From Candidatus Heimdallarchaeum aukensis (GTDB lineage: Archaea > Asgardarchaeota > Heimdallarchaeia > Heimdallarchaeales > Heimdallarchaeaceae), in assembly GCA_021513695.1 (NCBI GenBank), contig CP084166.1, positions 1,568,001-1,632,000 on the forward strand: a DNA stretch of 64,000 nt, written 5' to 3'. Below, piece after piece: positions 2,593 to 40,247 of the stretch. The position numbers were made by a program, and so were the translations under genes. Within the stretch, counting starts at the first letter, position 1. Each line of letters opens with the position of its first letter. Under the pieces are notes generated by a model. It was not told where the DNA came from. It made no database searches and saw nothing but the letters and a program-made list of their open reading frames with translations.

Positions 2593-4575
2593 ATGAACAT
2601 GAGCAGAATTAATAGTCTTTATAAAATTGAAGGCAACAATTATAATAAATTAAAACATGAAAAGTATTCATTTATTACAGATAACAATTTTAGGGATAGT
2701 AATTATAAAGAAAAAATGAAACAAAAATTAAATAATAACCAGCTGAATAAAAAAATAAAATCAGAAATAAGTTTTGATGTGGTTTTTGATAAAGATTGGG
2801 TAATTAATGAATCAATTACAGTTGTAGGAAAAACTATATTACTAAAAGGAAATCTAATTGTAAACTCAACAGGGAATATCACAATAGAGAATTCAATTTT
2901 AATATTTAACTCTTCGTGGATAGTTAATAATGGAAATCTTGTAGAAGAAGCTTTACAGATTAGAATTCTTGGAGGTAAAACTATTTTTATTAATACTACA
3001 ATATCAGTTTTAGTTCCATTTGTAGAATTAAGTTATAATCAAATACGTAATAATTACTTTACGATAAGCGCAGAAAAATCTTCCCAGTTGTACTTTATAA
3101 ACAGCGAATTGAAACATTTAGGAATTATAGATAACATAAATAGTGGGATAAATGTTAACCAAATAAGTGAGTTAAAACTAGAAAATTGTAATATTAATGC
3201 ATTATGGGGAATTCTTTATGCTAATAATACAGACAGAATCGTAATCAATAATTGCAAATTAAACTCAAGCTTGAGGGGAGATATGAGATTTGGAACAAAT
3301 TATACCATGGTAACTCTAAATGGTGGAATTGAACATATAATTACACACAACAATTTCTTTAGAAATGAGGAAACAAAGTCTATAGAATATTCAGAAGAAA
3401 AAATAGACAGGCTTGTTATCTTGAATTCAAAGAACAGTATTATTTCAGAAAACACATTTAAACAAGCAAGATCTTATGATAATTCCTTTGGTCTAAATGT
3501 TAGAAACTGCACTTCAACGATAATTAATAACAATAAGGGACCATCAATGCACATGCATTTAAAAGATTCTAGAAATATTACAATAACACAAAATCACTTT
3601 GGGCAACTAATGGTTCATAATACCTGCGAATTGTTACTTAAATTCAACATAGCTGAAAATCTGGAACTCGCTAACTGTTCTTATATAAACGTCAATTACA
3701 ATATTTTTAATGCTACAAAGGAAAGAATCTATGATATAGGATCTTGCGTTTTTCTAATGGGTTCAAATGAATATATTAATATTTCATGTAACATTAATGC
3801 AGTACCTATTTTGGAAAGTTCATTTTATACAATAACAGCAGAAATAAAGAACAGTTTCTTTTATATGAATAATCAAGTTGGCCCCATATATATAAATGAT
3901 TATCCAGATTTCTATGAGAAAGTGTTTAATTTCTCAATAGAAAATAAAAGAGAAATAGTAATAGAATACCCAAAACTATCAGTAAATCAATATTACAGTT
4001 ATAACAGTCAAGGTAATTTCTATTCAGCCGATATACAAGCAAGTTTAGAAAATATATTAGAAGATTTTAACAACGATGGTATAGGAGATGCATCCTTTCC
4101 AGTATCGTCCGTTCCTATAATAATGGATGAAAATCCATTAATGTTCCCCATTACGTTTAATAATAATTTCGATCAAAAAGCCCCAACTCTTAATCATAAA
4201 AATTATTTTCCAGGGGGCGATAATTCTATTTATGATACCATCTATGCTAGTGTAACTGACAATTTTATGTTGGCTACAATTGTAGTAGCTTATGATTTAG
4301 GTTCATCTGGTTCATGGACTTTTAAGACTATGATAAAGGATGAATTTACAGGAGAATTTATTGCAAAAATTCCTAAATTGACACAAGGGATAAATCAATA
4401 CTACTTTATTGTATGTGATATTTTTGGTAACGAAGCGAAAAGCGAAATTTATACTTATAAGGTTCCAATTATTACTTCACAGATTTCATGGCAAATCTTG
4501 AATTCCTTTCTAGGAGTATTACTTTTGATTTTTTATCTGAAAAAAACTAAACTCAAAAGGGTTCAAAAATGTTAA
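2593..4575 (+). CDS. Cell-surface protein with parallel beta-helix (PbH1/NosD-like) repeats and a C-terminal TM anchor
   Basis: 660 aa, Asn-rich, with periodic short repeats (NxxIxN, IINNN, ITITQN) typical of right-handed beta-helix proteins. The C-terminal hydrophobic helix WQILNSFLGVLLLIFYL is followed by the basic tail KKTKLKR. A signal-peptide-like sequence lies in frame just upstream of the ATG (see findings). Confidence 0.6.
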   Translation: MNMSRINSLYKIEGNNYNKLKHEKYSFITDNNFRDSNYKEKMKQKLNNNQLNKKIKSEISFDVVFDKDWVINESITVVGKTILLKGNLIVNSTGNITIENSILIFNSSWIVNNGNLVEEALQIRILGGKTIFINTTISVLVPFVELSYNQIRNNYFTISAEKSSQLYFINSELKHLGIIDNINSGINVNQISELKLENCNINALWGILYANNTDRIVINNCKLNSSLRGDMRFGTNYTMVTLNGGIEHIITHNNFFRNEETKSIEYSEEKIDRLVILNSKNSIISENTFKQARSYDNSFGLNVRNCTSTIINNNKGPSMHMHLKDSRNITITQNHFGQLMVHNTCELLLKFNIAENLELANCSYINVNYNIFNATKERIYDIGSCVFLMGSNEYINISCNINAVPILESSFYTITAEIKNSFFYMNNQVGPIYINDYPDFYEKVFNFSIENKREIVIEYPKLSVNQYYSYNSQGNFYSADIQASLENILEDFNNDGIGDASFPVSSVPIIMDENPLMFPITFNNNFDQKAPTLNHKNYFPGGDNSIYDTIYASVTDNFMLATIVVAYDLGSSGSWTFKTMIKDEFTGEFIAKIPKLTQGINQYYFIVCDIFGNEAKSEIYTYKVPIITSQISWQILNSFLGVLLLIFYLKKTKLKRVQKC

Positions 4576-4825
4576 ACATTTTATTTTTTTCTCTTAGACA
4601 GAACAATAAGAAAGAAAACTCAAACTCTTCAAGGTTAAGATGAATTGCGTAGTAAGCATACTAAAAGATTCATATAATATAATAAAGAAACAGCAGACTC
4701 TCCACCAATAATCCAACATCTAATTCATTTGTCATAAACCCAAAAAAAGTTATGGAAAAATTGTTATAAATAAAAATTACTAGTTAATCATTGTTTCACA
4801 ATTTTATGTTATAGATTTTGTTAGA

Positions 4826-17577: not shown

Positions 17578-17904
17578 TTGTTCCTCTCTCACAATGTAGA
17601 TATGACCAAGCAAAATAAATCAAAATTTGATCGCATTACTTGGATTGTCACAGAGTTGATTATTGGCTTTGCTGCCGCAGGTTATGGAGTTTATGGTTTA
17701 TTTAAAGGTTTACCAGAACAAAAGATTGTCCACATAATTATTGCTTCTATTGGTGGGGTTCTATTATTACTTGCTTTTAGTCAGATTCTTATATTAAGAG
17801 GTAAAAAGAAAAGAACTAAAGAAATCAAGCATTGCCCCAAATGTGGAGCTGAAGTCCAAAAAGGAGATGAACACTGCAGAAAATGTGGAGAAAAATTAAA
17901 ATAA
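17578..17904 (+). CDS. Small membrane protein with C-terminal zinc ribbon
   Basis: Two TM helices, then CPKCGAEVQKGDEHCRKCGEKL (CxxC-N9-CxxC). The likely true start is the ATG at 17602 (MTKQNKS...). Confidence 0.5.
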   Translation: MFLSHNVDMTKQNKSKFDRITWIVTELIIGFAAAGYGVYGLFKGLPEQKIVHIIIASIGGVLLLLAFSQILILRGKKKRTKEIKHCPKCGAEVQKGDEHCRKCGEKLK

Positions 17905-17922
17905 TAATTATTTGCTCTTTTC

Positions 17923-18309
17923 TTATTTCCAAACTTTTAGAAACTCTGGCATTTCTTCGAAGTTTACAATTGGTATTGATACGGGCCATCTAGCATCACT
18001 TACTTCATCAGCGAATTCGAACTCTTCCTTTGGACTTGTTCTATATCTTATAAATGATCCTGCAGGAGGTTCATCATTTTCTATCCAGACCACTATTGGA
18101 AGAGCTCTTAAGTTATAGTATCCTAAGCTAGTGTTGAACATGAAAAAAATATTCCTATTCGCTTCTTTTTCATAAAAATATCCAATATAACCAGTCACTC
18201 TATCTGATAAAGTTGAAGCAATGAGTTTTATTATATCTGATAATCCCTTAAGTTTTATTGACGCAGCTTTTTTTATATTATCTACTATTTCATCCATATT
18301 AACCACCAA
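17923..18309 (-). CDS. Hypothetical protein (128 aa) immediately downstream of atpK
   Basis: Clean ORF 19 nt after the atpK stop on the same strand. No motif recognised. Confidence 0.45.
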   Translation of the reverse strand: MVVNMDEIVDNIKKAASIKLKGLSDIIKLIASTLSDRVTGYIGYFYEKEANRNIFFMFNTSLGYYNLRALPIVVWIENDEPPAGSFIRYRTSPKEEFEFADEVSDARWPVSIPIVNFEEMPEFLKVWK

Positions 18310-18328
18310 AAATAAAAAAATAAGAAGT

Positions 18329-18634
18329 TTAGAAGATTAATAGAATAGCTACAAGTAGACCATAAATTGCTACTGCTTCAATAAGCACGATGAACAAGAA
18401 GATTTTACCAAAAATCTCTGGTTTTTCAACTAATGCGCCTATACCAGCCGAACCAGCTGAACCCATTCCGAGTGCACTACCGATTCCTGCTAGACCTATT
18501 GCTAGAGCAGCGCCTATAGGTCTCATATCTCCTTCTTCACCTAGAGGAATTTCTGCAGCGAATGTACCTTTTGCGGTTATAATGATAAGCGCAACAATTG
18601 CTAGTAGTCCAATAATCAGATCATTTTTTTTCAT
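18329..18634 (-). CDS. atpK: A/V-type ATPase proteolipid subunit K (c subunit)
   Basis: Gly-rich helix GAALAIGLAGIGSALGMGSAGSAGIG and a second helix with the conserved carboxylate (FIVLIEAVAIYGLL). The track ORF extends to 18730, but the Met at 18634 (MKKNDLIIG...) is the plausible start. Confidence 0.8.
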   Translation of the reverse strand: MKKNDLIIGLLAIVALIIITAKGTFAAEIPLGEEGDMRPIGAALAIGLAGIGSALGMGSAGSAGIGALVEKPEIFGKIFLFIVLIEAVAIYGLLVAILLIF

Positions 18635-18834
18635 AATACGTCCCTTTTTCACGTGTTTAAAATTACAAATCATCGTTTCTTTATTAGTTTTTTGTATTGG
18701 ATACTTTTTAATATTGAATACTTTTTTCAATAAAAAAGTTTTAAGAATAACATATTTTATATTTCATGTATAAGTAAGAAAGCAAACCTATAATAAATGG
18801 GAAAACTTTATGATTATTAAGAAAAGATTCTATC

Positions 18835-21707: not shown

Positions 21708-23161
21708 CTACTGGGGCTGCAACCAATGGCTGAGCCCTTGGCAAACAGTGAAATGAGTGAGACTAAATTTACGACCAGTGAGTAGATCAGTAATAGTTGT
21801 TGCACGGGGGCGGAAAAGAGAACTAAGGAGCAGACGAGCGATATTCATTGCTCCTGTTAGATCAGAGTGGAAGGTGTAATTGCAAGAGGGACAATAAACT
21901 AACCCTCTAACGGGGCGGGTAACTTTTTTTCCGCAACGGGCACAGTGAGATGATGTTCCTCTTTCCTCTATCGTCAGAATTCGGTGAGAGGGAAAACCTC
22001 TAAGTATTAGTGCACGACGGATAAAAGAAAGAACAAGAGCATAGTTCCACTGGTGAAGTTTTCTTCGTGACTTGCGATTAGTTACTCCCTTATTTTTTTC
22101 TCGTCGAATGTATTTAGGATAACCTATAACAACGAAAAGATTATAGATCCGAGCATAAACCTCTATTGTCCACACGATAGCACTTACAAATTGATTGATA
22201 TACGCTCGTCTGACGTTTCTATACCTCCGACGGAGACGTTTGAGAAAACGGTAAACTTGGTGTTTTTTACCCGATTGGTCGTTTAAAGCTGCTTTCCTCT
22301 GAAGACGGGAAAGTTTGAGTTTATATCGATGATTAACTTTATTCCACTGTTTGGTATACTAGAACTTTATTTCTTTACTTGTTACCTTCTTTTTCGGGGT
22401 CAGTAGCACTTCTACCGCAGGAATGTTTATCCCTAGATCTATTCCCAGCACAGCTGGGGGAAGAAAAGAAGAGTCAGAAGAAAGATTATCTCCCTGAAGG
22501 AAAGAAGAAGGAAGAACTTTTGAATGAAAATATATCCACCATTCACGTGTAGAACGTTTGTATCTTATTTCTAAACTTTTTACTCTTTCTTTAATTCTTT
22601 TTGATGAAACTCGCTCATCTCTAAAGGTAACCACAATCGCTGATGAAAACGTGTTTTTCTTTTCCACCTATCTAACGAGTCTCGTATTCCTACCCACCAA
22701 CGAGAAAGAGTGTTATTCTTATCTTTTGGTAGATGGACGAGGATGAACCTTTTTTTATTAATTAATTGTCTTCTTGCTCTCTTTCTTGGAGGACGAGTAT
22801 TGTTAGGTCTATATCCTTGCTCATATAGTTGCACAGCTATATCTCTACATTCTTGAAACTCATCGTGAGAACAATAGGGAAACATTTTCTTCATATCGTG
22901 AGGAACAGTCGTTCTTCTTTCTTCCTCTTTTTTTACTCTCGAGGTCGTTAATGTCAATTCGTCTAATTTTCCTTTATGTACTTTTATTTTCCCTTCTTTT
23001 GCTTTAATACCTATTTTTTTTCTGTTATGGTGTATAATTCTCACATACTTTTCTATTATTCTAGTATCTCTCCCCGTTATTCTCCTTAACTTTTCTTTTT
23101 TTCTCGTCGTCAATACTTCATTCTTCACTCTCACCTTTAACGTTTTGACGACGTCCTCCAT
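21708..23161 (-). pseudogene. tnpB: tnpB pseudogene (frameshift plus premature stop)
   Basis: Three track ORFs (22580-23161, 22359-22667, 21708-22175) together reproduce the 484-aa copy-A protein. There is an indel near 22585-22595 relative to copy A. TGG became TAG at 22359-22361 (KFWYTKQ in A, KF*YTKQ here). Confidence 0.85.
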
Positions 23162-25009: not shown

Positions 25010-26014
25010 ATGTCTAAAGAAGGTAGATATGCGAGACAGACTCTCATACCTGGTTGGAATCAGAAGAAACTCAACAAATCAACAGTTATTATTGTTGGTG
25101 TGGGAGCAATTGGATCATATGTATCAACGATTTTAGCTTCTTCAGGAGTAAAAAATCTCATTCTAATTGATTTTGATACTATTGAAATCTCTAATCTTAA
25201 TCGTCAATTACTATTTCGGGATGGAGATATTGGAAAATCCAAATCTGAAATTGCAGCTATGCGATTATCGGAACTAAATCCAGATATTAACATTACCTTT
25301 CATCATAAGAAGATGCAAGATTTACCTATTTCTATTTACAAAAAAGCAGATGTCATTGTGGCTTGTCTTGATACCTTCATTGGAAGAAGATGGATAAATT
25401 CACTTGCTGTAAAAATAAACAAACCTTTAATTTTAGGTGGAATGTTTGCTTTTCTAGGAGATGTTCAAGTTGTTTTACCAAAAAAAACTGCTTGCTTTGA
25501 TTGTCAACCTTTAGTTGCAGAAAGAGAACTTGCGCAAGCTTGTACTCCATTCGGAGAAGAAAGGAAGAAAAACAGAGAAGAAAAAGAGGATGAAGCGAAA
25601 TTACCATCTGTAGCCACATTGTCTGCGATTATCGGAGGAATTATGGCACAAGAAGCCTTAAAACTTCTTTTAGACATAGGTGAACCAATCAAGAATTATC
25701 TTTTCTATGATGGATTACATAATGCAACAACAATAATTGAACTTGCAAGAAGAAAAAAAGATTGTCCAACTTGTGGAGAACTATATGAGTTGGAACAAGT
25801 CGAATTTGTGGTAAATAAAGATAATACCGTCAAAGAACTATTAATCCAATTAGGTTTACAATTCGGACTTGAGAGCCCAGACATTATGATTAAAGGGAGG
25901 ATACTCCCTCACGATTCAAAAATCCAAGAACTAGGTATAAAAAATAACATGAAGGTTTTTGTAATGGACAAAAATTTAGCTTCACCAATCAAGTTAAAGT
26001 TAAAGATTGAGTGA
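25010..26014 (+). CDS. E1-like ubiquitin-activating enzyme (ThiF/MoeB fold) with C-terminal beta-grasp/UFD-like domain
   Basis: Rossmann motif VGVGAIGSYV, then DFDTIEISNLNRQLLF. Zinc-type cysteine pairs CFDC and CPTC. A charged crossover-loop insert (EERKKNREEKEDEAK) follows ACTPF. The last ~70 aa (VKELLIQLGLQFGL...MKVFVMDK) look like a beta-grasp domain. Confidence 0.85.
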   Translation: MSKEGRYARQTLIPGWNQKKLNKSTVIIVGVGAIGSYVSTILASSGVKNLILIDFDTIEISNLNRQLLFRDGDIGKSKSEIAAMRLSELNPDINITFHHKKMQDLPISIYKKADVIVACLDTFIGRRWINSLAVKINKPLILGGMFAFLGDVQVVLPKKTACFDCQPLVAERELAQACTPFGEERKKNREEKEDEAKLPSVATLSAIIGGIMAQEALKLLLDIGEPIKNYLFYDGLHNATTIIELARRKKDCPTCGELYELEQVEFVVNKDNTVKELLIQLGLQFGLESPDIMIKGRILPHDSKIQELGIKNNMKVFVMDKNLASPIKLKLKIE

Positions 26015-26025
26015 AAAAAGAAAAT

Positions 26026-26751
26026 TTAGGTGTGTGACAGTCCAGGGAAATAATATTTAGTTCCTTCAGCATAGGAACTATCTACTCTTGCTATACCATT
26101 TTCTTCAAAAAATGATAAGCAACGATTAATTCTTTCCTCTGCCCACCCTGTTCTAAGTAATAGATCTTCTTTTGTTACAAATCCTGTTCTTGAAGCAATG
26201 TTTAATATTACATCATGGTCGGGACTGAATTCAACAGGAGCAAATTCTACTAGTTTCACTCCAGATTCTAAAACTTTGAAAGGTGGAATTAATTTTGAAT
26301 TTATGAGTTTCTCTAATGAACGATACAAGTCATCAATTGTAACTAGTTTTCCAGGTCTAGTTTTATTTAATTGGGTAAACAATTCACCTACAGACATTAT
26401 ACCTCCATTTTCTTCTATAAGTTTTTGACCCAAATCCATGATTTCGTTTGCTAAAACATCATAGAAACCTTTTCCTGTTAATCTATCTTTTAGAGTTGGA
26501 GCTTCTTTCCATTCATATCTCCCTATTTCTGTAGGTAAGCCTAGTTCTTCTCGCAGGCCAGCAAGTTTTTCATAATATTCTTTATTTTCAACTATTTTAT
26601 CACCATATTTCTTTTCAAATTTCTTTAGTTGCTTTTTAACTTGTTTAATATTTTCCAACATTTGTTCTAATTCTTTTATCATTAATTCGGCTTCTTTAAC
26701 TTGGAAAGCTGACTTCACTTTTAATTTCTTTTCAATATCTCTTAAGCCCAA
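26026..26751 (-). CDS. EAP30-domain ESCRT-II subunit (Vps22/Vps36-like)
   Basis: By-eye alignment to SNF8/EAP30: FYDVLANEIMDLGQKLIEENGGIMSVGELFTQL vs [33 protein letters not shown], and DHDVILNIASRTGFVTKEDL...W..ER....L..FEENGIARVD vs DHTVVLQLAEKNGYVTVSEI...W..ER....L..LLKEGLAWLD. An N-terminal coiled coil is present. Confidence 0.8.
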   Translation of the reverse strand: MGLRDIEKKLKVKSAFQVKEAELMIKELEQMLENIKQVKKQLKKFEKKYGDKIVENKEYYEKLAGLREELGLPTEIGRYEWKEAPTLKDRLTGKGFYDVLANEIMDLGQKLIEENGGIMSVGELFTQLNKTRPGKLVTIDDLYRSLEKLINSKLIPPFKVLESGVKLVEFAPVEFSPDHDVILNIASRTGFVTKEDLLLRTGWAEERINRCLSFFEENGIARVDSSYAEGTKYYFPGLSHT

Positions 26752-26823
26752 CTTTAATCACTATTTTTTATTTGTCAGTGAGATATAAAAAATATACTAT
26801 TTAATTTCGCAATTAGCTTAGAG

Positions 26824-27132
26824 TTAAAAAAGGAGAGGAAGTCTTCTAATCCACTCTTTAATTGAATTCATAAGCTTTTTAGATTCATTTGGAGGAAGAA
26901 AAGCTGCTAGTTTGTCTTTATAGTTTTTGTATAGTTTTTGATAAACGCTGTCCATTTCATCAACAATTGAATCATTTACCAAATTGATTTTTTTAACAAG
27001 ATGTTTTATCTCTTCCAACTCTTCTAAGATGTATGAACAGTCAATTTTTATTTCTAAGAGATCCATCAACTCGAATAAACTATCTTTTGCTTTATTATAG
27101 GTATTTTCTAAAGATTTTCTCCTAGAAATCAT
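26824..27132 (-). CDS. Small all-helical protein (102 aa) between the ESCRT-I-like and ESCRT-II genes
   Basis: Heptad-like, charged helical sequence. It has its own SD-like GAGGAG 6 nt upstream of the ATG. No family recognised. Confidence 0.5.
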   Translation of the reverse strand: MISRRKSLENTYNKAKDSLFELMDLLEIKIDCSYILEELEEIKHLVKKINLVNDSIVDEMDSVYQKLYKNYKDKLAAFLPPNESKKLMNSIKEWIRRLPLLF

Positions 27133-27168
27133 GTTTACTCCTCTAAAAAGGCTGGATAAAAGATAGGA

Positions 27169-28638
27169 CTACATATCTTTTAAAATTCGTCTAAATTCGT
27201 TTAACCATCTTGATGCTTGGAATTCTAGTTTTTCACAATCGTCTTCATTTATTATTTCACTTGGTTTATAATTTGAAAGAATGTCTTTCCAGTTTTTCAT
27301 ATCGCTGAGCATCCAATGATCTTGCGGAATAGATGGAAACGAGTGCAAAACATGAATTAGCTCTTCTACGTCAGCCAACAGCAAATCAGCTCGTGCGACT
27401 GATTTAAGCCTTGTTAGATCAATTAATTCAATTGCAGCTGAAACAAAATCAGCTGTTTTTACAGGCATTTTCTTTAAGGATTCAAATGGTATCATTTCAA
27501 CATCTTTAGTTCCAGTTCCTTCAGCCATTTGTAGCAATCTCATTCCTTTGTCAAATCTATTTAGCAGATTTTCTTGCTCTATAAACGAATCGAGATCAAA
27601 TCCACCTAATTGTTCCAGTTTCATTCTTGTTTTGAAAACTGTTCTTATTAGTGATCTTAACTGCTTTTTATATGCAACTTGCTCAATCTCACCATTTTCA
27701 TACCCTCTCGCTAAATTATCTAATGTCACTATTGCTGCATATAAATCAGCTTCAAAATCTAATCTTTTATCTAAATCACTAGGCATTACTTGTCCTCCAA
27801 CATTTTCTAAATAAGCTAATTTTTTATTTGTCTTATAACTTTCCACTGAATATTTTCTATAAAGTTTCAAGTAATCAACACTTGAAAGATCTCCATCATC
27901 AAATTTCTCATTTAATAGCTCTAATAAGTCATTAGATGCTCTTGAACTTGCTTTTAAATCATCGGTTACAGAAATTGTAAGTTCTTTTAATGAATGTGAA
28001 GGCTCAGCTTTCTTGATTAGAGCAGCTCTTTTTTCCTCAATTTGTTTATTTAGTTCGTTTATCTGCTGCTGATACGCTTCTATCTCTGCTTCAATAGTAC
28101 TTTTTTCTATCGATGTTTGACTCCGTTCATTAAAGGATGGTACACTTTGCTTACGTACAGTGTGACGTGAAACTGTTCTTGGTTTCATCGGTTGAACTAC
28201 AGATCTAGACACACTCCTAGCTGTAGACATATGCTTTGTTCTTAATGGTCTTGCAGGAACATTAGCAAATAATCGCCGAATATCATTTATAACTTGATAA
28301 ATATGATAGCGTGGTTTCCATTGAGCGAGTATTTGCAAACTAAGAAAGTCATTGTCGTCAACATTAGGATGATTTACTTTAGGAGTAATTTCAACTTGAG
28401 GAGGAATTCTTGGGAACTCTGGAGAGATATATATTGTAGCATAAACAGTTATCTTCGTTCCTTGAATTATCCCTACAGGGCCTTTCCACTTTCTTAAATT
28501 GCCTCCTACTGGCTCAAATCCTTCAACATTATTATAAATTAATTGCATCTCATTAGCAAGAATCTGATCTAGAGAAATTTGTCTCACCTTTACTCTTCTA
28601 TTATTGTTATAAACTTCAAAGTTTAAAAAATATTGCAT
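27169..28638 (-). CDS. ESCRT-I-like fusion: UEV/E2-variant domain + coiled-coil stalk + Vps28-like domains
   Basis: Residues ~45-125 have a UBC fold (KWKGPV..GT...V...I....FP..PP.V.....V.HPNV) with Ser100 where E2s carry the catalytic Cys (DFLSLQIL vs GSICLDIL). A coiled coil spans ~170-205. The C-terminal ~200 aa align by eye to Vps28 (DLYAAIVTLDNLARGYENGEI...Y vs ELYSLIITLDHLEKAYLKD.I...Y, plus a C-terminal helical bundle). Confidence 0.75.
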   Translation of the reverse strand: MQYFLNFEVYNNNRRVKVRQISLDQILANEMQLIYNNVEGFEPVGGNLRKWKGPVGIIQGTKITVYATIYISPEFPRIPPQVEITPKVNHPNVDDNDFLSLQILAQWKPRYHIYQVINDIRRLFANVPARPLRTKHMSTARSVSRSVVQPMKPRTVSRHTVRKQSVPSFNERSQTSIEKSTIEAEIEAYQQQINELNKQIEEKRAALIKKAEPSHSLKELTISVTDDLKASSRASNDLLELLNEKFDDGDLSSVDYLKLYRKYSVESYKTNKKLAYLENVGGQVMPSDLDKRLDFEADLYAAIVTLDNLARGYENGEIEQVAYKKQLRSLIRTVFKTRMKLEQLGGFDLDSFIEQENLLNRFDKGMRLLQMAEGTGTKDVEMIPFESLKKMPVKTADFVSAAIELIDLTRLKSVARADLLLADVEELIHVLHSFPSIPQDHWMLSDMKNWKDILSNYKPSEIINEDDCEKLEFQASRWLNEFRRILKDM

Positions 28639-28729
28639 TCAAAAAAAAGAGTCTTTTCTTGAGAAAAAAATATATGAAAAAAAATTGATTATAATTCTAA
28701 ATTACAATAGAACCTAGGAATAAACTCTT

Positions 28730-29272
28730 TTACTTTCTATTTTTGACTAAAAGTGTAGCTAGTTTCACAAATGCTTCTTGAACATGTTCTCCTGTAAGTG
28801 CACTTGTTTTTATGAAATCCAAACTATTGATTTTGTTTTGTAATGATTTACATTCATCATCTGATACAGCAATTTTATCTTCTAAATCATTTTTATTTCC
28901 AACTAAGATGGTAAGGGTGTTCTTTCCACAGTTTTTAACAAGTTCAGAGTTCCATTTCTCTAGATCAGTTAGTGTTGAATTCCTGGTTAAATCGAAAACC
29001 ATCAGTGCTGCTTTTGCTCCTTTAAAGAAAGTATGTCTTATAAACCTAAATCTATCTTGTCCTGCTAGATCCCAAATTGAAAGAGCTACAACTGTATTGT
29101 CCTCTAATGTAACAAATTTCTCACTCGGTTCCATACCTATTGTCATCAGATAACTTTGTTCAAAACGATTATGAACAAAACGTTGTACAAGAGATGTCTT
29201 TCCTACAGCGGCGGCACCTAATAGAAGTATTTTGAAATTGAAATCAGGACGAATTGAACGCATTATTCTCAA
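28730..29272 (-). CDS. Rab/Ras-like small GTPase
   Basis: G1 GAAAVGKTS, G3 WDLAGQD, G4 GNKND and G5 TSAL. By eye it aligns end to end with Rab-type GTPases. There is no C-terminal Cys prenylation motif. The likely start is the ATG at 29263 (MRSIRPDF...). Confidence 0.9.
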   Translation of the reverse strand: MRIMRSIRPDFNFKILLLGAAAVGKTSLVQRFVHNRFEQSYLMTIGMEPSEKFVTLEDNTVVALSIWDLAGQDRFRFIRHTFFKGAKAALMVFDLTRNSTLTDLEKWNSELVKNCGKNTLTILVGNKNDLEDKIAVSDDECKSLQNKINSLDFIKTSALTGEHVQEAFVKLATLLVKNRK

Positions 29273-29275
29273 CTT

Positions 29276-29572
29276 TTACATTTTTTTTGCTTTTACAAGC
29301 TCTTCTTTTAAACTTTTAAGATAGTATGTTTCAAAATTTTCTTCTGCGCGTTTAATAGTAGTAAGAGAAATACAGAGATCTAATATGAATTCATATTGTT
29401 CTTTTTTCTCTTTCTGTGGTTTGAATGCTTTAAATTTTTTTAATAAATACTCGGCTAACTTTGACGCTTCTTTTTTTGTTAATGTTCCTTGCTCATATAA
29501 ATTAATAATTAACTCCATTTTCTCTATAGTAATATCATTGTTAATCTCTTTTAACGACAAAATTTTACTCAT
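29276..29572 (-). CDS. Small helical hypothetical protein (98 aa), first gene of the GTPase/ESCRT-I/II strand
   Basis: Clean ORF ending a few nt before the GTPase start. Lys/Glu-rich helices. No family recognised. Confidence 0.5.
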   Translation of the reverse strand: MSKILSLKEINNDITIEKMELIINLYEQGTLTKKEASKLAEYLLKKFKAFKPQKEKKEQYEFILDLCISLTTIKRAEENFETYYLKSLKEELVKAKKM

Positions 29573-29791
29573 ATGCTATCTATTCATTTTTTTCGGTTAA
29601 TATATGTTTTGCTGTTAAACTGGTTAGAAAATTGCTATCAGGGACTTATAATTAGATCAATAAATCAGATATTATATTTAAAATTGAGTAAGAAATTTCA
29701 ACAAGGATAACCTTTAGAAAAAGATAAAATAACCAAATAACTATTTTTGGGAGAAATATAAATTTAAAAATGGAAAAAAAAAATAATTTTA

Positions 29792-30499
29792 ATGACAAAA
29801 AAAACAATACTTGCTTGTTTTGCCCATCCTGATGATGAATTGGGTTGTGTTGGAACATTAGCAAACCATGCAAAAAATGGAGATAGAGTTGTAATTGCAT
29901 GGACTACTAGTGGTGAGATGGCTTCTTTTTTTGAAGGGATGAGTTTTGAAGAAGTAAAAGATATTAGAGAAAAACAAGGAAGAGAAATCGGTAAAATCAT
30001 AGGAAGTAATGTAGAAACTATTTTCTTAGGTTATGGTGACACAGAAGTCATTCCTACTAGGGAAAATGCTATTAAAATGGCAAAAATAATTGCTAAAATT
30101 AAGCCAGATGCCGTTATTAGTTGGGGATTTAATAATCGACACCCAGATCATAGAGGAACAGTACAATTATTGTATGATGCTATGACATATGCTAGAATCC
30201 CAAGAATAACAAGTCCTGACCCTCCTCACAGACCTCCATTTCATATACCCATGTTCTTATATTATGAGAAAATCAGCCCTTTACGAACAGTTTACGTAGA
30301 TATTAGTGAAACTTATCCTCAGGTAGAAAAAGCGTTTAGACTTTACGCTGATTTCTATGGATGGTCGGTAAGTGATTGGATTCATGTAAGAAGAAGAACA
30401 GATGGAATGGATTGCGGAGTAAAATTCGCAGAGAAATTTAATGTTTTTTCAAGATATGAGCCATATTCATCTTTATTACCAATAAATAATGATGCATAG
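29792..30499 (+). CDS. PIG-L/LmbE family N-acetylglucosaminyl deacetylase
   Basis: Signature AHPDDE (LACFAHPDDELG) and a later HPDH (NRHPDHRGT). 235 aa. Confidence 0.85.
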   Translation: MTKKTILACFAHPDDELGCVGTLANHAKNGDRVVIAWTTSGEMASFFEGMSFEEVKDIREKQGREIGKIIGSNVETIFLGYGDTEVIPTRENAIKMAKIIAKIKPDAVISWGFNNRHPDHRGTVQLLYDAMTYARIPRITSPDPPHRPPFHIPMFLYYEKISPLRTVYVDISETYPQVEKAFRLYADFYGWSVSDWIHVRRRTDGMDCGVKFAEKFNVFSRYEPYSSLLPINNDA

Positions 30500-30538
30500 A
30501 AAAATCTAGAAAAAATCCAGTGCTGATTTACTTTTTTA

Positions 30539-31162
30539 TTATTTTTCATCATCAGTTTGCTTCTCTTCTTTTTCTTCTTCATTTTCTTCTTCAAAGAAGT
30601 CATCATCAAACATTAATACACTGTCTAAAACAGAGTCAAGGGAAGGTCTTTCAGGAGGAGTTAATGGTATATCTGCTTTATCTGCAACAGAAATATCTAA
30701 AGATGAAAGATCTGCTCTCGCTCTTCTTCTCGTTGTTGGAGTCGTACTAACATATTGAATATTCTTTAACATTGATTTAACAGAACTGATTTCTTCTTTC
30801 AAATCTTTCAGAGAACTGAGTGCATTAATTTTTTCTAAAAGCTCATCTACTTTCTCTAACTCTCTTTTGGTTTTCTCTTCAAACTTTTTACTTGTTTCAG
30901 TTATCTTTGCAAACTGGCCTTCAGTTATGTTTATTCTTCTAGGAATTGAGGGTTCAGTGGGTGGAAAAAACAATGCAGGAGATGCTTTTAATTCTTCAAG
31001 AGAACCAAATTTTTCACTATGGTGTGCCTTGATTGACGCAAGAATTGCAGTTATAGGGTTTCCATATTCCGTCATTAAATCTTCAATCATATCCCATATT
31101 GCTATAGGAATTGGTACTTCTATTATTCTAGCTATCCTTTGCTTCTTTTTTTGAGAATACAT
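30539..31162 (-). CDS. Hypothetical protein with central coiled coil and strongly acidic C-terminal tail
   Basis: 207 aa. The N-terminal region could be ribbon-helix-helix-like (RIARIIEVPIPIAIWDMIEDLM), which is a weak call. The tail is FDDDFFEEENEEEKEEKQTDDEK. Confidence 0.5.
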   Translation of the reverse strand: MYSQKKKQRIARIIEVPIPIAIWDMIEDLMTEYGNPITAILASIKAHHSEKFGSLEELKASPALFFPPTEPSIPRRINITEGQFAKITETSKKFEEKTKRELEKVDELLEKINALSSLKDLKEEISSVKSMLKNIQYVSTTPTTRRRARADLSSLDISVADKADIPLTPPERPSLDSVLDSVLMFDDDFFEEENEEEKEEKQTDDEK

Positions 31163-31397
31163 TATTTTCTACCAGATTAATTAGTAATTTGAGTATTTAA
31201 TTAAAGACCACTACTTTACACATCTCTGATAATACTTCTCTGTATATAAATATACTTTTTAATCTACTAAAATCAAAGAATGATAAATATTAGACAATAA
31301 TAGGAATTTTAACCTAATTAAAAAACAAACTGTTAAAATAAGAAGATAAGGTAGAAAGGAAAGATCCTTTCTCTCTCTCCCTTTTAATAGAATTTTC

Positions 31398-31670
31398 TTA
31401 TGCAGTGTCTGTTACTTTGCTTTCTTCTTGTAGGAACTCAAAAGTTTCACGTAACTCAGGAGCTAAGTAATAATAGACCGACCGCATATCTGATAGATTA
31501 GACATTTTCTTTAAAATGCCTTTTTCTAGAAGGCGTCTAATACCATAACGAACTGTTCGTTCTGGTTGTTCTACAGATGCTAAGATCTGTTTCTGTGTCA
31601 TTGGTCCTTTTTCGTCCAATACTTTTATTATATCTTCTCCGCCTCGGGGTAATTTTCGTCTTTTCATCAT
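31398..31670 (-). CDS. Small winged helix-turn-helix DNA-binding protein
   Basis: 90 aa. DIIKVLDEKGPMTQKQILASVEQPERTVRYGIRRLLEKGILKK is a typical wHTH (MarR/TrmB-like) core. AGGTGA lies 3 nt upstream of the ATG. Confidence 0.65.
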   Translation of the reverse strand: MMKRRKLPRGGEDIIKVLDEKGPMTQKQILASVEQPERTVRYGIRRLLEKGILKKMSNLSDMRSVYYYLAPELRETFEFLQEESKVTDTA

Positions 31671-31692
31671 GATTCACCTTTTTTTTGTTCAT

Positions 31693-31709
31693 CTAGTGTT
31701 TTACACTAG
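31693..31709. promoter_or_regulatory. 7-bp perfect palindrome (CTAGTGT-ttt-ACACTAG) 22 nt upstream of the wHTH gene start
   Basis: 31693-31699 is the reverse complement of 31703-31709. Its position in the 5' region of a DNA-binding protein gene suggests an autoregulatory operator. Confidence 0.3.
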
Positions 31710-31767
31710 CTTTAACACATGCATATTGAGCGTAACTCAATCAAACTACTGGGTTTATAAACTTTTG

Positions 31768-31851
31768 CCTAGTCCGAGAGCATCTCTGCTAATGCAATGA
31801 ATACGTATCATTGTTGCGTATGTTTATCCATACACACAACGCGGACTTAGG
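31768..31851. ncRNA. Cloverleaf-like 84-nt element of unknown nature (not a canonical tRNA)
   Basis: The closing stem is CCT-AGTCCG / CGGACT-(T)-AGG. It encloses three hairpins: AGAG-cat-CTCT, CAATGA-atacgta-TCATTG, and GTATG-tttatc-CATAC. GC is above local background. There is no T-loop GTTCRA, no D-loop and no proper spacers. Confidence 0.15.
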
Positions 31852-31964
31852 AATTCGCCCAAACCCCAAATTTATTGAAGTTACTGTTACTCAGTATTTA
31901 CTATTCTCATCTAAGTATATAATGATTTCTATGTAACAAAATAAAAAAATTATATATATTTAAC

Positions 31965-32867
31965 CTATAAATTATTTAAAAAATCTCTTATTCTTTGAAG
32001 AGCAAGTCTACTTTCTGGCAACATTTTTCCAAAGAGAGTGAAACAGTGTGTCATTTCTTCCCAAATATCTAGCTCCACATTTACACCTTGTTCTAGTGCT
32101 TTTTTTGCGAATCTTATTGAATCATCGAGTAAAATTTCAGAGGTTCCAACTTGGATAAATATTGAAGGTAGACCACGAAGGTCACCAAACAAAGGGGACA
32201 CTAAGGGGTTTCTAGGATTTTGTCCTTGTAGATACATTTCGGCGGCAAATTCTAGATTCTTTTTTGATAACTGGGGATCTTCATCTTCTTTAGTAAGAAC
32301 TGATTCACCAGATAAGGTTAAGTCAGTCCAGGGAGAGATACATATTCCTGCCCTAGGAAGAGGTTTTCTTAATGATTTCAAGTTGAGCATTGTAGATAGT
32401 GTCAATCCTCCTCCTGCAGAGTCACCCATTATGATTACTTTTTTTGGGTTAAGTTCCAGATCGCCTATCAAGTTCAAATATGCTTTTGTTGCATCTTCAA
32501 GAGCTGCAGGAAAAGGAAATTCTGGAGCTAAACGATAATCAAGAAGTAGTACTTGCGTTTCAGTTATCAGTGAAAATCTTCCTGCAAAAGCTCTATGCGT
32601 TTTTGGAGATCCAATTACATATGCTCCCCCATGTAAATATAAAATAGTATATTCAGATTTCATGTAACCGATCTTTGTTGGATATAACCATTCTGCATTT
32701 AAATTATTTATTTCAGTTTTTTCAACAGTTATTGCTTTTGGTACTTTTAAAATAGAAAGAGTTCTCTCTAAAATGTGCCTTTTTCTTTCTACACTCCTGT
32801 CTCCAGTAGATTTTACGGGCAGAGAACGTAAAAGATTTAACAAAATTTTTGCTTTACGACTAACCAC
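31965..32867 (-). CDS. Alpha/beta-hydrolase fold-3 esterase/lipase (HSL family)
   Basis: Oxyanion-hole box YLHGGAY (an HGG motif) and nucleophile elbow GDSAGG. A late acidic residue and His (EEMTHCF) are also present. 300 aa. Confidence 0.85.
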   Translation of the reverse strand: MVSRKAKILLNLLRSLPVKSTGDRSVERKRHILERTLSILKVPKAITVEKTEINNLNAEWLYPTKIGYMKSEYTILYLHGGAYVIGSPKTHRAFAGRFSLITETQVLLLDYRLAPEFPFPAALEDATKAYLNLIGDLELNPKKVIIMGDSAGGGLTLSTMLNLKSLRKPLPRAGICISPWTDLTLSGESVLTKEDEDPQLSKKNLEFAAEMYLQGQNPRNPLVSPLFGDLRGLPSIFIQVGTSEILLDDSIRFAKKALEQGVNVELDIWEEMTHCFTLFGKMLPESRLALQRIRDFLNNL

Positions 32868-39866: not shown

Positions 39867-40247
39867 ATGTCAATAAGTTTACCACCAGAAAAGAAAAAAG
39901 AATTAATTAAAATATTAAAACAAATTTCACAAGGTTGTGAATTGGAAGCTTTAGCAGTTGTAACAGATGAGGGAATTAAAGTAGCTTTTTTTGCCGAGAA
40001 AAGTGCAGACCCTGATTTACTCAGCGCTGTAAGCTCGGCTGTTCTTTCCACCGGAGAGATGGTTACAAAACAGCTTTCTCACGGTTTTTTGGAACAAGTT
40101 TTAATCCGCGGTGCTAAAGGATTTACTATCTTATCTAATTTAGATCACTATCTTTTAATTGGAGCTTCTAAGGATTTACACAGCGTTGGTTTAGCTATAC
40201 AAGTAATAAGAAGGCATAGCCCCACAATTGCAGAATTGTTAAACTAA
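39867..40247 (+). CDS. Roadblock/LC7/MglB-family protein
   Basis: 126 aa. ALAVVTDEGIKVAFF...AVLSTGEMVTKQLSHGFLEQVLIRGAKGFTILSNLDHYLLIGASKD follows the Roadblock/LC7 alpha-beta-alpha pattern. Confidence 0.8.
   Translation: MSISLPPEKKKELIKILKQISQGCELEALAVVTDEGIKVAFFAEKSADPDLLSAVSSAVLSTGEMVTKQLSHGFLEQVLIRGAKGFTILSNLDHYLLIGASKDLHSVGLAIQVIRRHSPTIAELLN

Follow-up and report, generated by a model that had tools for sequence, protein, structure and literature searches.

In Candidatus Heimdallarchaeum aukensis, the genes coding for a small GTPase and for a 98-aa protein (orf98) lie immediately upstream of a set of ESCRT genes, raising the question of whether the GTPase belongs to the ESCRT-I/II transcription unit and acts on its products. 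An earlier note on this DNA proposed that the two genes head this unit and that the GTPase provides nucleotide-switch control of ESCRT recruitment. If the pair acts on ESCRT-I/II, it would link small GTPases with ubiquitin-ESCRT sorting, two eukaryote-like hallmarks of Asgard archaea, in the lineage closest to eukaryotes. We analysed a 64,000-nt stretch of the genome (referred to as the window in the rest of the text; Table 1) together with related loci. The order of the genes is as described before: the UEV-Vps28, 102-aa (orf102) and EAP30 genes follow the GTPase on the same strand (ORF list and Pfam). The analysis favours a more ordinary picture, that of one more Asgard Rab-like GTPase and a lineage-specific partner gene that lie beside the ESCRT cluster and are probably transcribed separately from it.

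Table 1. Coordinates of the genes and predicted signals in the orf98-GTPase-UEV-Vps28 region of the window.
Feature	Position	Strand	Basis
Putative BRE/TATA-like promoter of the pair, AGCAAAACATATATTAA	29597..29613	(-)	Conserved TATATTAA box
orf98, 98-aa protein, predicted four-helix	29276..29572	(-)	ORF list; orthologues 5' of every orthologous GTPase
Rab-family small GTPase	28730..29272	(-)	ORF list; Pfam Ras; PDB matches; 16-orthologue alignment
Oligo-T tract 3' of GTPase stop, likely terminator region	28641..28684	(-)	T8 28677-28684, T7 28664-28670, T8 28641-28648
Conserved non-coding element AATGCAATATTTTTTAAA, putative BRE/TATA-like promoter of UEV-Vps28/orf102/EAP30	28622..28639	(-)	Conserved in 29 loci
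UEV-Vps23core-Vps28 fusion (ESCRT-I), revised GTG start	27169..28587	(-)	Pfam UQ_con/UEV, Vps23_core, VPS28

The GTPase is Rab-like and has an invariant switch I

The GTPase gene codes for 180 aa from the listed TTG and for 177 aa from an ATG at 29263, which is the start found in database relatives. Its product matches Pfam Ras (PF00071; residues 14-174, E=3.6e-45) with 153.9 bits compared to 56 bits for Arf, and its best 60 PDB matches are all Rab or Ypt proteins. The full-length alignment with Rab-type GTPases and the five intact G motifs described earlier both held up. The best solved relative, Thorarchaeota Rab 7EZB, aligns end to end (E=3.9e-37), followed by Rab4B and Rab11, and the motifs were located at G19-T26 (G1, GAAAVGKT), D68-Q72 (G3, DLAGQ), N126-D129 (G4, NKND) and T156-L159 (G5, TSAL), with the switch-I threonine at T44. 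Across 16 orthologues, G1-G5 and the entire switch I (SYLMTIGMEPSEK) are unchanged, with the exception of the G12-position residue of the P-loop; only the window GTPase has Ala at both the Ras-G12 and Ras-G13 positions, the orthologues having Ser, Asp or Asn at G12. That switch I does not vary speaks for a binding partner that is likewise conserved. The alignment also reveals the segments IGMEP, ALSIW, RFRFIR, FFKGA and MVFDLT, which are partial matches to RabF1-F5, the motifs that Pereira-Leal and Seabra reportedly gave as IGVDF, KLQIW, RFRSIT, YYRGA and LVYDIT. Orthologues with at least 64% identity are confined to Heimdallarchaeaceae, the next tier of GTPases being at about 50-56%.

The protein terminates in ...LLVKNRK, and a C-terminal cysteine (CC/CXC prenylation motif) is absent from the window GTPase, as the earlier note had pointed out, and from all orthologues in the 16-orthologue alignment. 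Since such a cysteine is also absent from the aligned part of the 7EZB construct, we file the GTPase, on the basis of its alignments, as Rab-like and not as a canonical eukaryotic Rab. Its intact P-loop, switch-I Thr, catalytic DxxGQ Gln, NKxD and SAL elements suggest that it is a Rab-family nucleotide switch. Because it has no lipid-anchor cysteine, its localisation to a membrane or target would have to come via a protein partner, for which the product of orf98 is the best candidate, whether as a regulator, an effector or an adaptor.

orf98 codes for a small protein family that accompanies the GTPase

The orf98 stop codon lies 3 nt before the GTPase TTG and 12 nt before its ATG, which agrees with the previous description of a helical ORF ending a few nucleotides upstream. 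Both genes occur together in 15 genome loci with a gap of -8 to +21 nt, overlapping in several relatives, and the strict pairing also holds in L030-L033 and in 10 orf98-anchored metagenome loci. With the GTPase cistron starting 3-12 nt after the orf98 stop, or overlapping orf98 in relatives, both proteins are made together. Given this tight coupling and constant co-occurrence, the earlier suggestion that orf98 is a direct partner of the GTPase appears plausible, and the two proteins most likely act as a complex.

In all relatives that have an orthologue of the GTPase, orf98 is a real gene whose product is 39-63% identical to that of the window. Besides the start Met, twelve residues are invariant (K34, D65, L66, C67, S69, T72, I73, R75, F80, E81, S87 and L88), among them the motif DLC-S--TI-R----FE. 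An AlphaFold2 model built on 3 sequences (mean pLDDT 75) is all-helical, with helices predicted at residues 16-27, 33-49, 54-75 and 78-97. A word-indexed protein search had returned 2 homologues only and made orf98 look like an orphan, a view overturned by tblastn on related loci and by a full HMMER scan, in which orf98 matches only 7 clusters among 1.84 billion representative proteins. orf98 is a protein family specific to Heimdallarchaeaceae; its definition is a by-product of this analysis and opens the way to direct tests of whether orf98 binds the GTPase and ESCRT-I.

None of the 15 orf98 members scanned reached a Pfam family, and their scattered sub-threshold matches (UPF0175, Dsl1_N, RILP and others) were rejected as they point to no consistent family. 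No Robl_LC7 (Roadblock) match was found in these 15 members either, and orf98, being predicted all-helical, does not show the alpha/beta fold of a Roadblock/longin (MglB-like) GTPase partner. The window has a Roadblock gene of its own (39867-40247), which lies 10 kb from the pair and whose synteny is limited to the closest relatives. Structural matches of orf98 amounted to a generic four-helix bundle, none of them informative, and no similarity that would make orf98 and orf102 paralogues was found.

We also considered whether orf98 could be a diverged ESCRT-I headpiece module (a Vps28 N-terminal or steadiness-box hairpin) that ties the GTPase to ESCRT-I and replaces the missing Vps37, which we judge extremely improbable. 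The best four PDB profile matches of orf98 are all to the yeast Vps28 N-terminal core (E=0.078-0.15), and in hhalign residues 13-44 fall on the beginning of the Vps28 domain in the window fusion; however, the hhalign probability is 0.9%, and the profile of orf102, used as a control, reaches E=0.03 on eIF3a. After this control the similarity to Vps28-N was rejected as unsupported. Moreover, orf98 has no Pfam VPS28 or Vps23_core match and lacks an extended helical hairpin of the kind seen in ESCRT-I core structures.

Gene order points to a recent adjacency of the GTPase and UEV-Vps28 genes

Conservation of the GTPase-ESCRT linkage in relatives was one of two points, along with the absence of separate promoters and terminators, on which the earlier note had let its proposal stand or fall, and direct adjacency is largely missing. 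The GTPase is co-directional with and directly upstream of UEV-Vps28 only in the window, in Ca. Heimdallarchaeum endolithica PR6 (L001) and in the near-identical contig L039. The immediate 5' neighbour of UEV-Vps28 is the ubiquitin E1 gene in 28 related loci of Heimdallarchaeaceae, and in one more (L032) E1 is divergent. Where E1 is upstream, the orf98-GTPase pair lies 2.8-8.2 kb from UEV-Vps28. The arrangement usual in the family is wHTH - orf98 - GTPase - <orf207 - PIG-L - ... - Ub - E1 - UEV-Vps28, and the 3' end of the convergent gene that follows the GTPase touches or overlaps that of the GTPase. This common order persists in a relative whose identity is 80% for the GTPase and 71% for UEV-Vps28, indicating that the order found in the window is derived. 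Judged from these arrangements, the adjacency of GTPase and UEV-Vps28 is a recent local rearrangement, which would have arisen in the genus containing Ca. Heimdallarchaeum endolithica via local inversions and transpositions.

Predicted promoters and an oligo-T tract delimit two probable transcription units

In archaea, the TATA box lies ~25 nt upstream of the transcription start, and transcription terminates at oligo-T. The promoters and terminator proposed here are assigned from these general archaeal rules and from conservation. Upstream of the pair, all 20 loci compared carry TATATTAA 29-33 nt ahead of the orf98 ATG, with an A-rich stretch just 5' of it and flanks that diverge. The box of the window occupies 29597-29604 (-32 to -25 from the ATG), and in several relatives it comes after the hairpin and T-run ending the wHTH gene located 5' of the pair.

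A second element, the 18-nt AATGCAAYRTTTTTTAAA, lies ~51 nt upstream of a conserved GTG start of UEV-Vps28 and shows 90% identity or more in 29 loci, its flanks diverging. It is present in all three gene arrangements, that is, whether the 5' neighbour of UEV-Vps28 is E1, the GTPase or the divergent E1 of L032. Since E1 is divergent in L032 and the element is present there, transcription of UEV-Vps28 in that locus must start in the gap between the two genes. The spacing between element and GTG is 50-59 nt (nominally 50-65 nt from the residue-18 anchor), taking values that are not multiples of three, and stop codons close the frame between them in most loci, including the 95%-identical PR6. Like the TATATTAA box, the element shows the sequence features of an archaeal BRE/TATA (an A/T-rich 8-mer, a purine/A-rich 5' stretch, a short fixed distance and conservation), and these two well-conserved, predicted promoter elements of Heimdallarchaeaceae are a further by-product of the work. 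A regulon motif shared with other genes of the window was rejected, as only one exact copy of the 18-nt element occurs in the window and weaker matches are at chance level. An Rfam scan of 26000-32000 detected no RNA family in the intergenic regions; a single sub-threshold match, to snoR12, falls within the coding sequence of UEV-Vps28 and was put down to chance.

The element also bears on the annotation of the fusion gene. The listed UEV-Vps28 ORF of 489 aa is probably over-extended, because its ATG at 28638 falls inside the conserved non-coding element. The conserved start, GTG at 28587, yields 472 aa, and the homologues, which begin with VRQIS/VNKIS, are 459-479 aa long. This corrected start codon, another by-product, brings the gap between the GTPase and UEV-Vps28 to about 142 nt instead of 91 nt.

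Within this gap, the T8/T7/T8 tract located 46-89 nt beyond the GTPase stop separates the GTPase from the UEV-Vps28 promoter element. Two runs of at least eight Ts and one T7 within 90 nt make this the strongest oligo-T signal of the region; the 54 kb of coding sequence contain a single sense-strand run of eight or more Ts, and only 3/55 genes have one at most 80 nt after the stop. No such run was found between orf98 and the GTPase.

We thus consider it probable, from the conservation of these signals and of gene order, that the region holds two separate units that were brought side by side recently. The first would be a self-contained two-gene orf98-GTPase operon transcribed from the TATATTAA box 25-32 nt 5' of the orf98 ATG and most likely ending at the T8/T7/T8 tract. 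The second, coding for the ESCRT-I/II proteins UEV-Vps28, orf102 and EAP30, would be transcribed from the 18-nt element and begin translation at the GTG. A single polycistronic unit running from orf98 through the GTPase, UEV-Vps28 and orf102 to EAP30, which would have the GTPase expressed along with ESCRT-I/II and gating its recruitment, seems unlikely. Although the genes share a strand and are closely spaced in the window, in PR6 and in L039, a conserved promoter element lies directly 5' of UEV-Vps28 in every arrangement, the T runs intervene, and the adjacency is missing from 29 other loci, in which a convergent gene follows the GTPase. Archaeal oligo-T terminators are often leaky, and transcription may read through the tracts into UEV-Vps28. 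The earlier placement of the pair at the head of the ESCRT-I/II transcription unit was not borne out.

The pair belongs to an extended ubiquitin-ESCRT neighbourhood

Separate transcription leaves room for a functional connection. Of the loci whose flank on the side concerned reaches about 4.7 kb or more, 20/21 have the pair at a distance of 0.1-9.6 kb from UEV-Vps28, or 16/17 if near-identical loci (L030/L031, L020/L043 and L039) are collapsed to one each; no pair is found within 6 kb in L004. The block wHTH...ESCRT-III...orf108 is kept and the genes outside it are not syntenic. Gene order in these loci indicates that the pair is a stable member of an extended ubiquitin-ESCRT neighbourhood in Heimdallarchaeaceae, within about 10 kb. 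That the pair has stayed this close to the ESCRT cluster while the outer flanks were shuffled hints at more than chance proximity.

A functional ESCRT link of the pair is possible on this evidence. The pair could be transcribed separately and yet work in the ubiquitin-ESCRT system, for example by acting as the switch for recruiting or releasing ESCRT-I of the fusion type, an option we regard as conceivable, if doubtful. It would account for the proximity to UEV-Vps28 and the persistence of the block, and orf98 and the UEV-Vps28 fusion have the same narrow taxonomic range. However, the same block holds housekeeping genes, such as those for ATP synthase c and PIG-L, L004 departs from the pattern, and PIG-L still neighbours the most similar GTPases from outside the family (53-56% identity), which have no orf98 and, within 10 kb, no ESCRT gene. 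In addition, no GTPase is mentioned in the main texts of Hatano et al. 2022 (PMC9192718) and Makarova et al. 2024 (PMC10936438) as part of the ubiquitin-ESCRT cluster; the AB_125 contig (L029) begins at the fusion gene, so an upstream pair would not be visible there. Of the proposed nucleotide-switch control of ESCRT recruitment, what stands is synteny at the level of the family, and it does not extend to the closest non-family GTPases.

A more specific version would make the pair a dedicated ubiquitin-ESCRT switch of Heimdallarchaeaceae, with orf98 as the adaptor by which the GTP-bound Rab-like protein docks on ESCRT-I of the fusion type, possibly via a Vps28-N-like or steadiness-box-like hairpin in place of the missing Vps37. 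We hold this to be very unlikely; if true, archaea would offer a precedent for ESCRT recruitment controlled by a small GTPase.

The retention of PIG-L raises another explanation, namely that the older functional neighbour of the GTPase is the PIG-L-family deacetylase, or some other membrane or glycoconjugate process, and that the proximity to ESCRT genes is a family-specific accident of gene order. The GTPase and PIG-L lie near each other both in the family and in three outgroup loci that have no ESCRT genes (L034, L035 and L038), but within the family PIG-L is never co-directional with and adjacent to the GTPase, a convergent gene lying between them, and in the window it is divergent from orf98. 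The pattern could reflect inherited gene order only, and we know of no mechanistic precedent for a GTPase-PIG-L link. We give this explanation little credence, and retain as the preferred reading a separately transcribed orf98-GTPase operon within the ESCRT neighbourhood.

Comparison with known systems

The window contains the parts of the heimdallarchaeal ubiquitin-ESCRT cluster described previously (PMC9192718; PMC10936438), namely ubiquitin, E1, the UEV-Vps23-Vps28 fusion, EAP30/Vps22, Vps25, Vps4 and two ESCRT-III genes, and its fusion gene is the counterpart of HeimAB125_14070 (Hatano et al. 2022, PMC9192718). Among eukaryotic proteins, the best matches of the GTPase are to the Rab4/Rab11 subfamily (E about 1e-33 to 1e-35); we propose no orthology with any eukaryotic Rab. 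Its RabF-like segments match the RabF motifs only in part, and it has neither a CC/CXC tail nor a hypervariable C-terminal extension.

With Asgard Rab-like GTPases such as Thorarchaeota Rab 7EZB, it has in common G1-G5, a length of about 180 aa and the absence of a C-terminal prenylation cysteine, the 7EZB construct being judged as far as it aligns. It differs from them by its P-loop, GAAAVGKT instead of GDGAVGKT, and by a switch I whose invariant sequence is the family's own. Constant pairing with orf98 likewise sets its family apart from the next-closest GTPases, which lack orf98.

Finally, the arrangement of the pair resembles that of MglA-MglB and of the Asgard operons coding for a LAMTOR1-like protein, a Rab-like GTPase and a DENN protein (Liu et al. 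preprint, 10.1101/2020.10.19.343400). In each case a small GTPase gene lies beside, and is translationally coupled to, a gene for a small non-GTPase protein that likely binds it. In contrast to these systems, the putative partner in Heimdallarchaeaceae is an all-helical protein of 98 aa instead of a Roadblock, longin or DENN protein.

A Rab-like GTPase with a constant small companion

The minus strand of the window (G+C about 31%; Asgard family Heimdallarchaeaceae) carries, as the earlier note had described, orf98 (a 98-aa ORF), a small GTPase gene, the ESCRT-I fusion UEV-Vps28, orf102 (a 102-aa ORF) and the ESCRT-II type gene EAP30. The remaining ubiquitin-ESCRT set, comprising two Snf7/ESCRT-III genes, Vps4, Vps25, a 145-aa ORF (orf145), ubiquitin and a ThiF-type E1, lies on the adjoining plus strand. 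Gene order is identical in Candidatus Heimdallarchaeum endolithica PR6 (CP084167.1), and the locus proteins are 95-98% identical.

Features of the locus, in window coordinates
Feature	Position	Strand	Remark
ATP synthase c-subunit gene (133 aa), 128-aa ORF without family, zinc-ribbon membrane ORF (108 aa)	17578-18730		Conserved neighbours flanking the cluster at its ESCRT-III end in most relatives; far boundary of the conserved block
Degraded TnpB/OrfB_IS605-type element	21708-23161	-	Between Vps4 and Vps25; split into 155-, 102- and 193-aa ORFs
EAP30/Vps22-type gene	26026-26751	-	Fifth in series
orf102	26824-27132	-	Fourth in series
UEV + Vps23-core + Vps28 fusion	27169-28638 as listed	-	Third in series; 489 aa from ATG 28638
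C/D-box snoR12 match (Rfam)	27438-27509	-	Inside UEV-Vps28 coding sequence; sub-threshold (27.4 bits, gathering score 39; E=0.064), probably chance
UEV-Vps28 start region	28587-28639	-	Listed start inside a conserved promoter-like element
T8, T7, T8 runs	28641-28684		Candidate terminator signal
Small GTPase	28730-29272	-	Second in series
orf98-GTPase junction	29270-29278	-	orf98 and the GTPase TTG start in one reading frame, TAA AAG alone between
orf98	29276-29572	-	First in series
PIG-L-family (GlcNAc-PI de-N-acetylase-like) gene	29792-30499	+	Divergent from orf98, 219-nt gap
orf207	30539-31162	-	For example 4111-4731 in related locus L012
Winged-helix protein (wHTH, HTH_24/MarR-like), 90 aa	31398-31670	-	
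Intact TnpB/OrfB_IS605-type copy, 484 aa	33174-34628	-	
Roadblock/LC7 gene	39867-40247	+	Adjoins ProRS

The 64-kb window contains a single small GTPase gene. Its product matches Pfam Ras (E=3.6e-45) and aligns over its full length best with a Thorarchaeota Rab (PDB 7EZB, E=3.9e-37), followed by Rab4B and Rab11. Motifs G1 (GAAAVGKT), G3 (DLAGQ), G4 (NKND) and G5 (TSAL), the switch-I threonine T44 and the whole 13-residue switch-I segment SYLMTIGMEPSEK are invariant across 16 aligned orthologues, none of which has a C-terminal cysteine. The Pfam, PDB and orthologue comparisons bear out the earlier description of a Rab/Ras-like protein with intact motifs and no C-terminal cysteine; the GTPase adds a new member to the Asgard Rab-like GTPases already known.

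A word-indexed protein search with orf98 returned two homologues only. By tblastn on related loci, an orf98 orthologue (39-63% identity) was found directly upstream of every orthologous GTPase, and orf98 used as bait recovered ten more loci, in each of which the GTPase comes next after orf98. The intergenic distance within the pair ranges from -8 to +21 nt. This conservation indicates that orf98 is a real gene and a constant companion of the GTPase, and makes it a plausible partner. When 1.84 billion representative proteins were scanned in full with HMMER, only seven clusters matched, one of them an unrelated bacterial repeat protein, and no orf98 member reached a Pfam family; orf98 is a small protein restricted to Heimdallarchaeaceae. 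Its AlphaFold2 model has four helices (mean pLDDT 75). Besides the start Met, twelve residues are invariant, including a DLC-S--TI-R----FE block surrounding the loop that joins the last two helices. Since the shared reading frame at the orf98-GTPase junction is not kept in relatives, which have 8-nt overlaps or 1-21-nt gaps, stop-codon read-through is unlikely to matter.

We considered orf98 as a Vps28-N-like ESCRT-I module. The best four PDB matches of its profile were all to the yeast Vps28 N-terminal core (E=0.078-0.15), and hhalign matched residues 13-44 to the beginning of the fusion's Vps28 domain, though with a probability of only 0.9%. As a control, the profile of the neighbouring helical orf102, which is unrelated to orf98, reached eIF3a at E=0.03, so that scores of this size are noise. 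With no match to Pfam VPS28 and no ESCRT-I chain among the fold matches returned, this reading was dropped.

Gene order in relatives

An alignment of the UEV-Vps28 fusion was used to fetch 29 genome loci, onto which all window proteins were mapped. In the common order, the wHTH gene, orf98 and the GTPase converge on orf207; PIG-L, a variable insert, orf145, ubiquitin, E1, UEV-Vps28, orf102 and EAP30 then run towards Vps25, Vps4, ESCRT-IIIB and ESCRT-IIIA on the opposite strand, beyond which the ATP synthase c gene and orf128 converge on orf108. In this order the GTPase lies 2.8-8.2 kb from UEV-Vps28, and its 3' end abuts or overlaps orf207, as it does in most relatives (gaps of -4 to +4 nt). 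The gene directly upstream of UEV-Vps28 is a same-strand E1 in 28 loci and a divergent E1 in one (L032), as against the GTPase, on the same strand, in the window and two loci (PR6 and a near-identical metagenome contig); the direct adjacency of GTPase and fusion described in the earlier note is thus not conserved. Locus L030, whose GTPase is 80% and whose UEV-Vps28 is 71% identical, still keeps the common order, so the window's arrangement is a recent derived state. By this comparison, the orf207/PIG-L and orf145-ubiquitin-E1 blocks were each inverted and moved. L032 has a third arrangement, with convergent V-ATPase genes after the orf98-GTPase pair and the pair 9.6 kb from UEV-Vps28.

The degraded TnpB element is missing from PR6, where Vps4 and Vps25 are adjacent, and elements of this type may have driven local rearrangements. 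The wHTH protein is the neighbourhood's most conserved (77-98% identity across the family). orf207 has no Pfam match; it has an N-terminus resembling a ribbon-helix-helix, a middle part resembling a coiled coil and, at the C-terminus, the conserved acidic motif ERPLLDxVLDSxLxFDDE. Within the fetched flanks, the Roadblock/LC7 gene occurs in the closest relatives PR6 and L032 only and is absent from those of the other family loci; the comparative data therefore lend no support to a link between Roadblock and the pair.

Separate promoter-like elements and the start of UEV-Vps28

All 20 loci compared carry the octamer TATATTAA ahead of orf98, at a position between -29 and -33 relative to the ATG and just 3' of an A-rich stretch, while its flanks diverge among loci; it is a putative promoter of the pair. 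Where the wHTH gene directly precedes the pair, as in the common arrangement, a GC hairpin and T-run end that gene ahead of TATATTAA in several relatives.

Upstream of UEV-Vps28, the 18-nt block AATGCAAYRTTTTTTAAA, unique within the window, shows 90% identity or more across 29 loci, with divergent flanks. It lies 50-59 nt (nominally 50-65 nt from a residue-18 anchor) before a conserved GTG that opens VRQIS or VNKIS. These spacings are not multiples of three, and in most loci, PR6 included, stop codons close the frame from AATGCAAYRTTTTTTAAA to the GTG; the window's ATG 28638 therefore belongs to a non-coding element. In PR6 (95% identical), a 1-nt difference throws this ATG out of frame. The true start is very probably GTG 28587, giving 472 aa; homologues have 459-479 aa. 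AATGCAAYRTTTTTTAAA is retained in all three gene arrangements, with E1, the GTPase or a divergent E1 as the upstream neighbour, and in this last case (L032) transcription must begin in the gap between E1 and UEV-Vps28. We take its core TTTTTTAAA, a predicted element, to be consistent in sequence and position with an archaeal TATA box, and regard AATGCAAYRTTTTTTAAA as a putative UEV-Vps28 promoter.

Three T runs stand between the GTPase stop codon and AATGCAAYRTTTTTTAAA. Sense-strand runs of at least eight T occur once in the 54 kb of coding sequence surveyed and within 80 nt past the stop in 3 of 55 genes; the orf98-GTPase junction has none. Taken together, the separate promoter-like elements and candidate terminator point to two units, orf98-GTPase and UEV-Vps28/orf102/EAP30, and leave the proposed co-transcription of the pair with ESCRT-I/II unsupported.

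Possible link to ESCRT

From its synteny, a role of the pair in ESCRT control is possible, though less likely than not. The pair lies less than 10 kb from the ubiquitin-ESCRT cluster in nearly every informative locus, whether anchored on UEV-Vps28, the GTPase or orf98 (the one exception is L004, where it is missing from 6 kb of upstream sequence), and genes beyond the block (thermosome, esterase, PLP enzyme, methyltransferase) are not syntenic. However, the block also includes housekeeping genes (ATP synthase c and PIG-L, for example), and the GTPases that rank next in similarity (53-56% identity; from other Heimdall/Asgard lineages; L034:153-963, L035:9730-10540, L038:9729-10558) have neither orf98 nor an ESCRT gene within 10 kb. 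A conserved zinc-ribbon ORF of 81-83 aa, unrelated to orf98, precedes them and PIG-L follows, so that a layout of small ORF, GTPase and PIG-L appears older than ESCRT proximity; two further GTPase relatives likewise have no ESCRT neighbours. PIG-L is a repeated neighbour of this GTPase within and outside Heimdallarchaeaceae.

Neither Hatano et al. 2022 (PMC9192718) nor Makarova et al. 2024 (PMC10936438) names a GTPase of the ESCRT cluster in its main text; the AB_125 contig used in earlier ESCRT work begins at the fusion gene. The conserved Asgard GTPase operon of Liu et al. (preprint 10.1101/2020.10.19.343400), LAMTOR1-like/Rab-like/DENN, is different from the orf98-GTPase pair.
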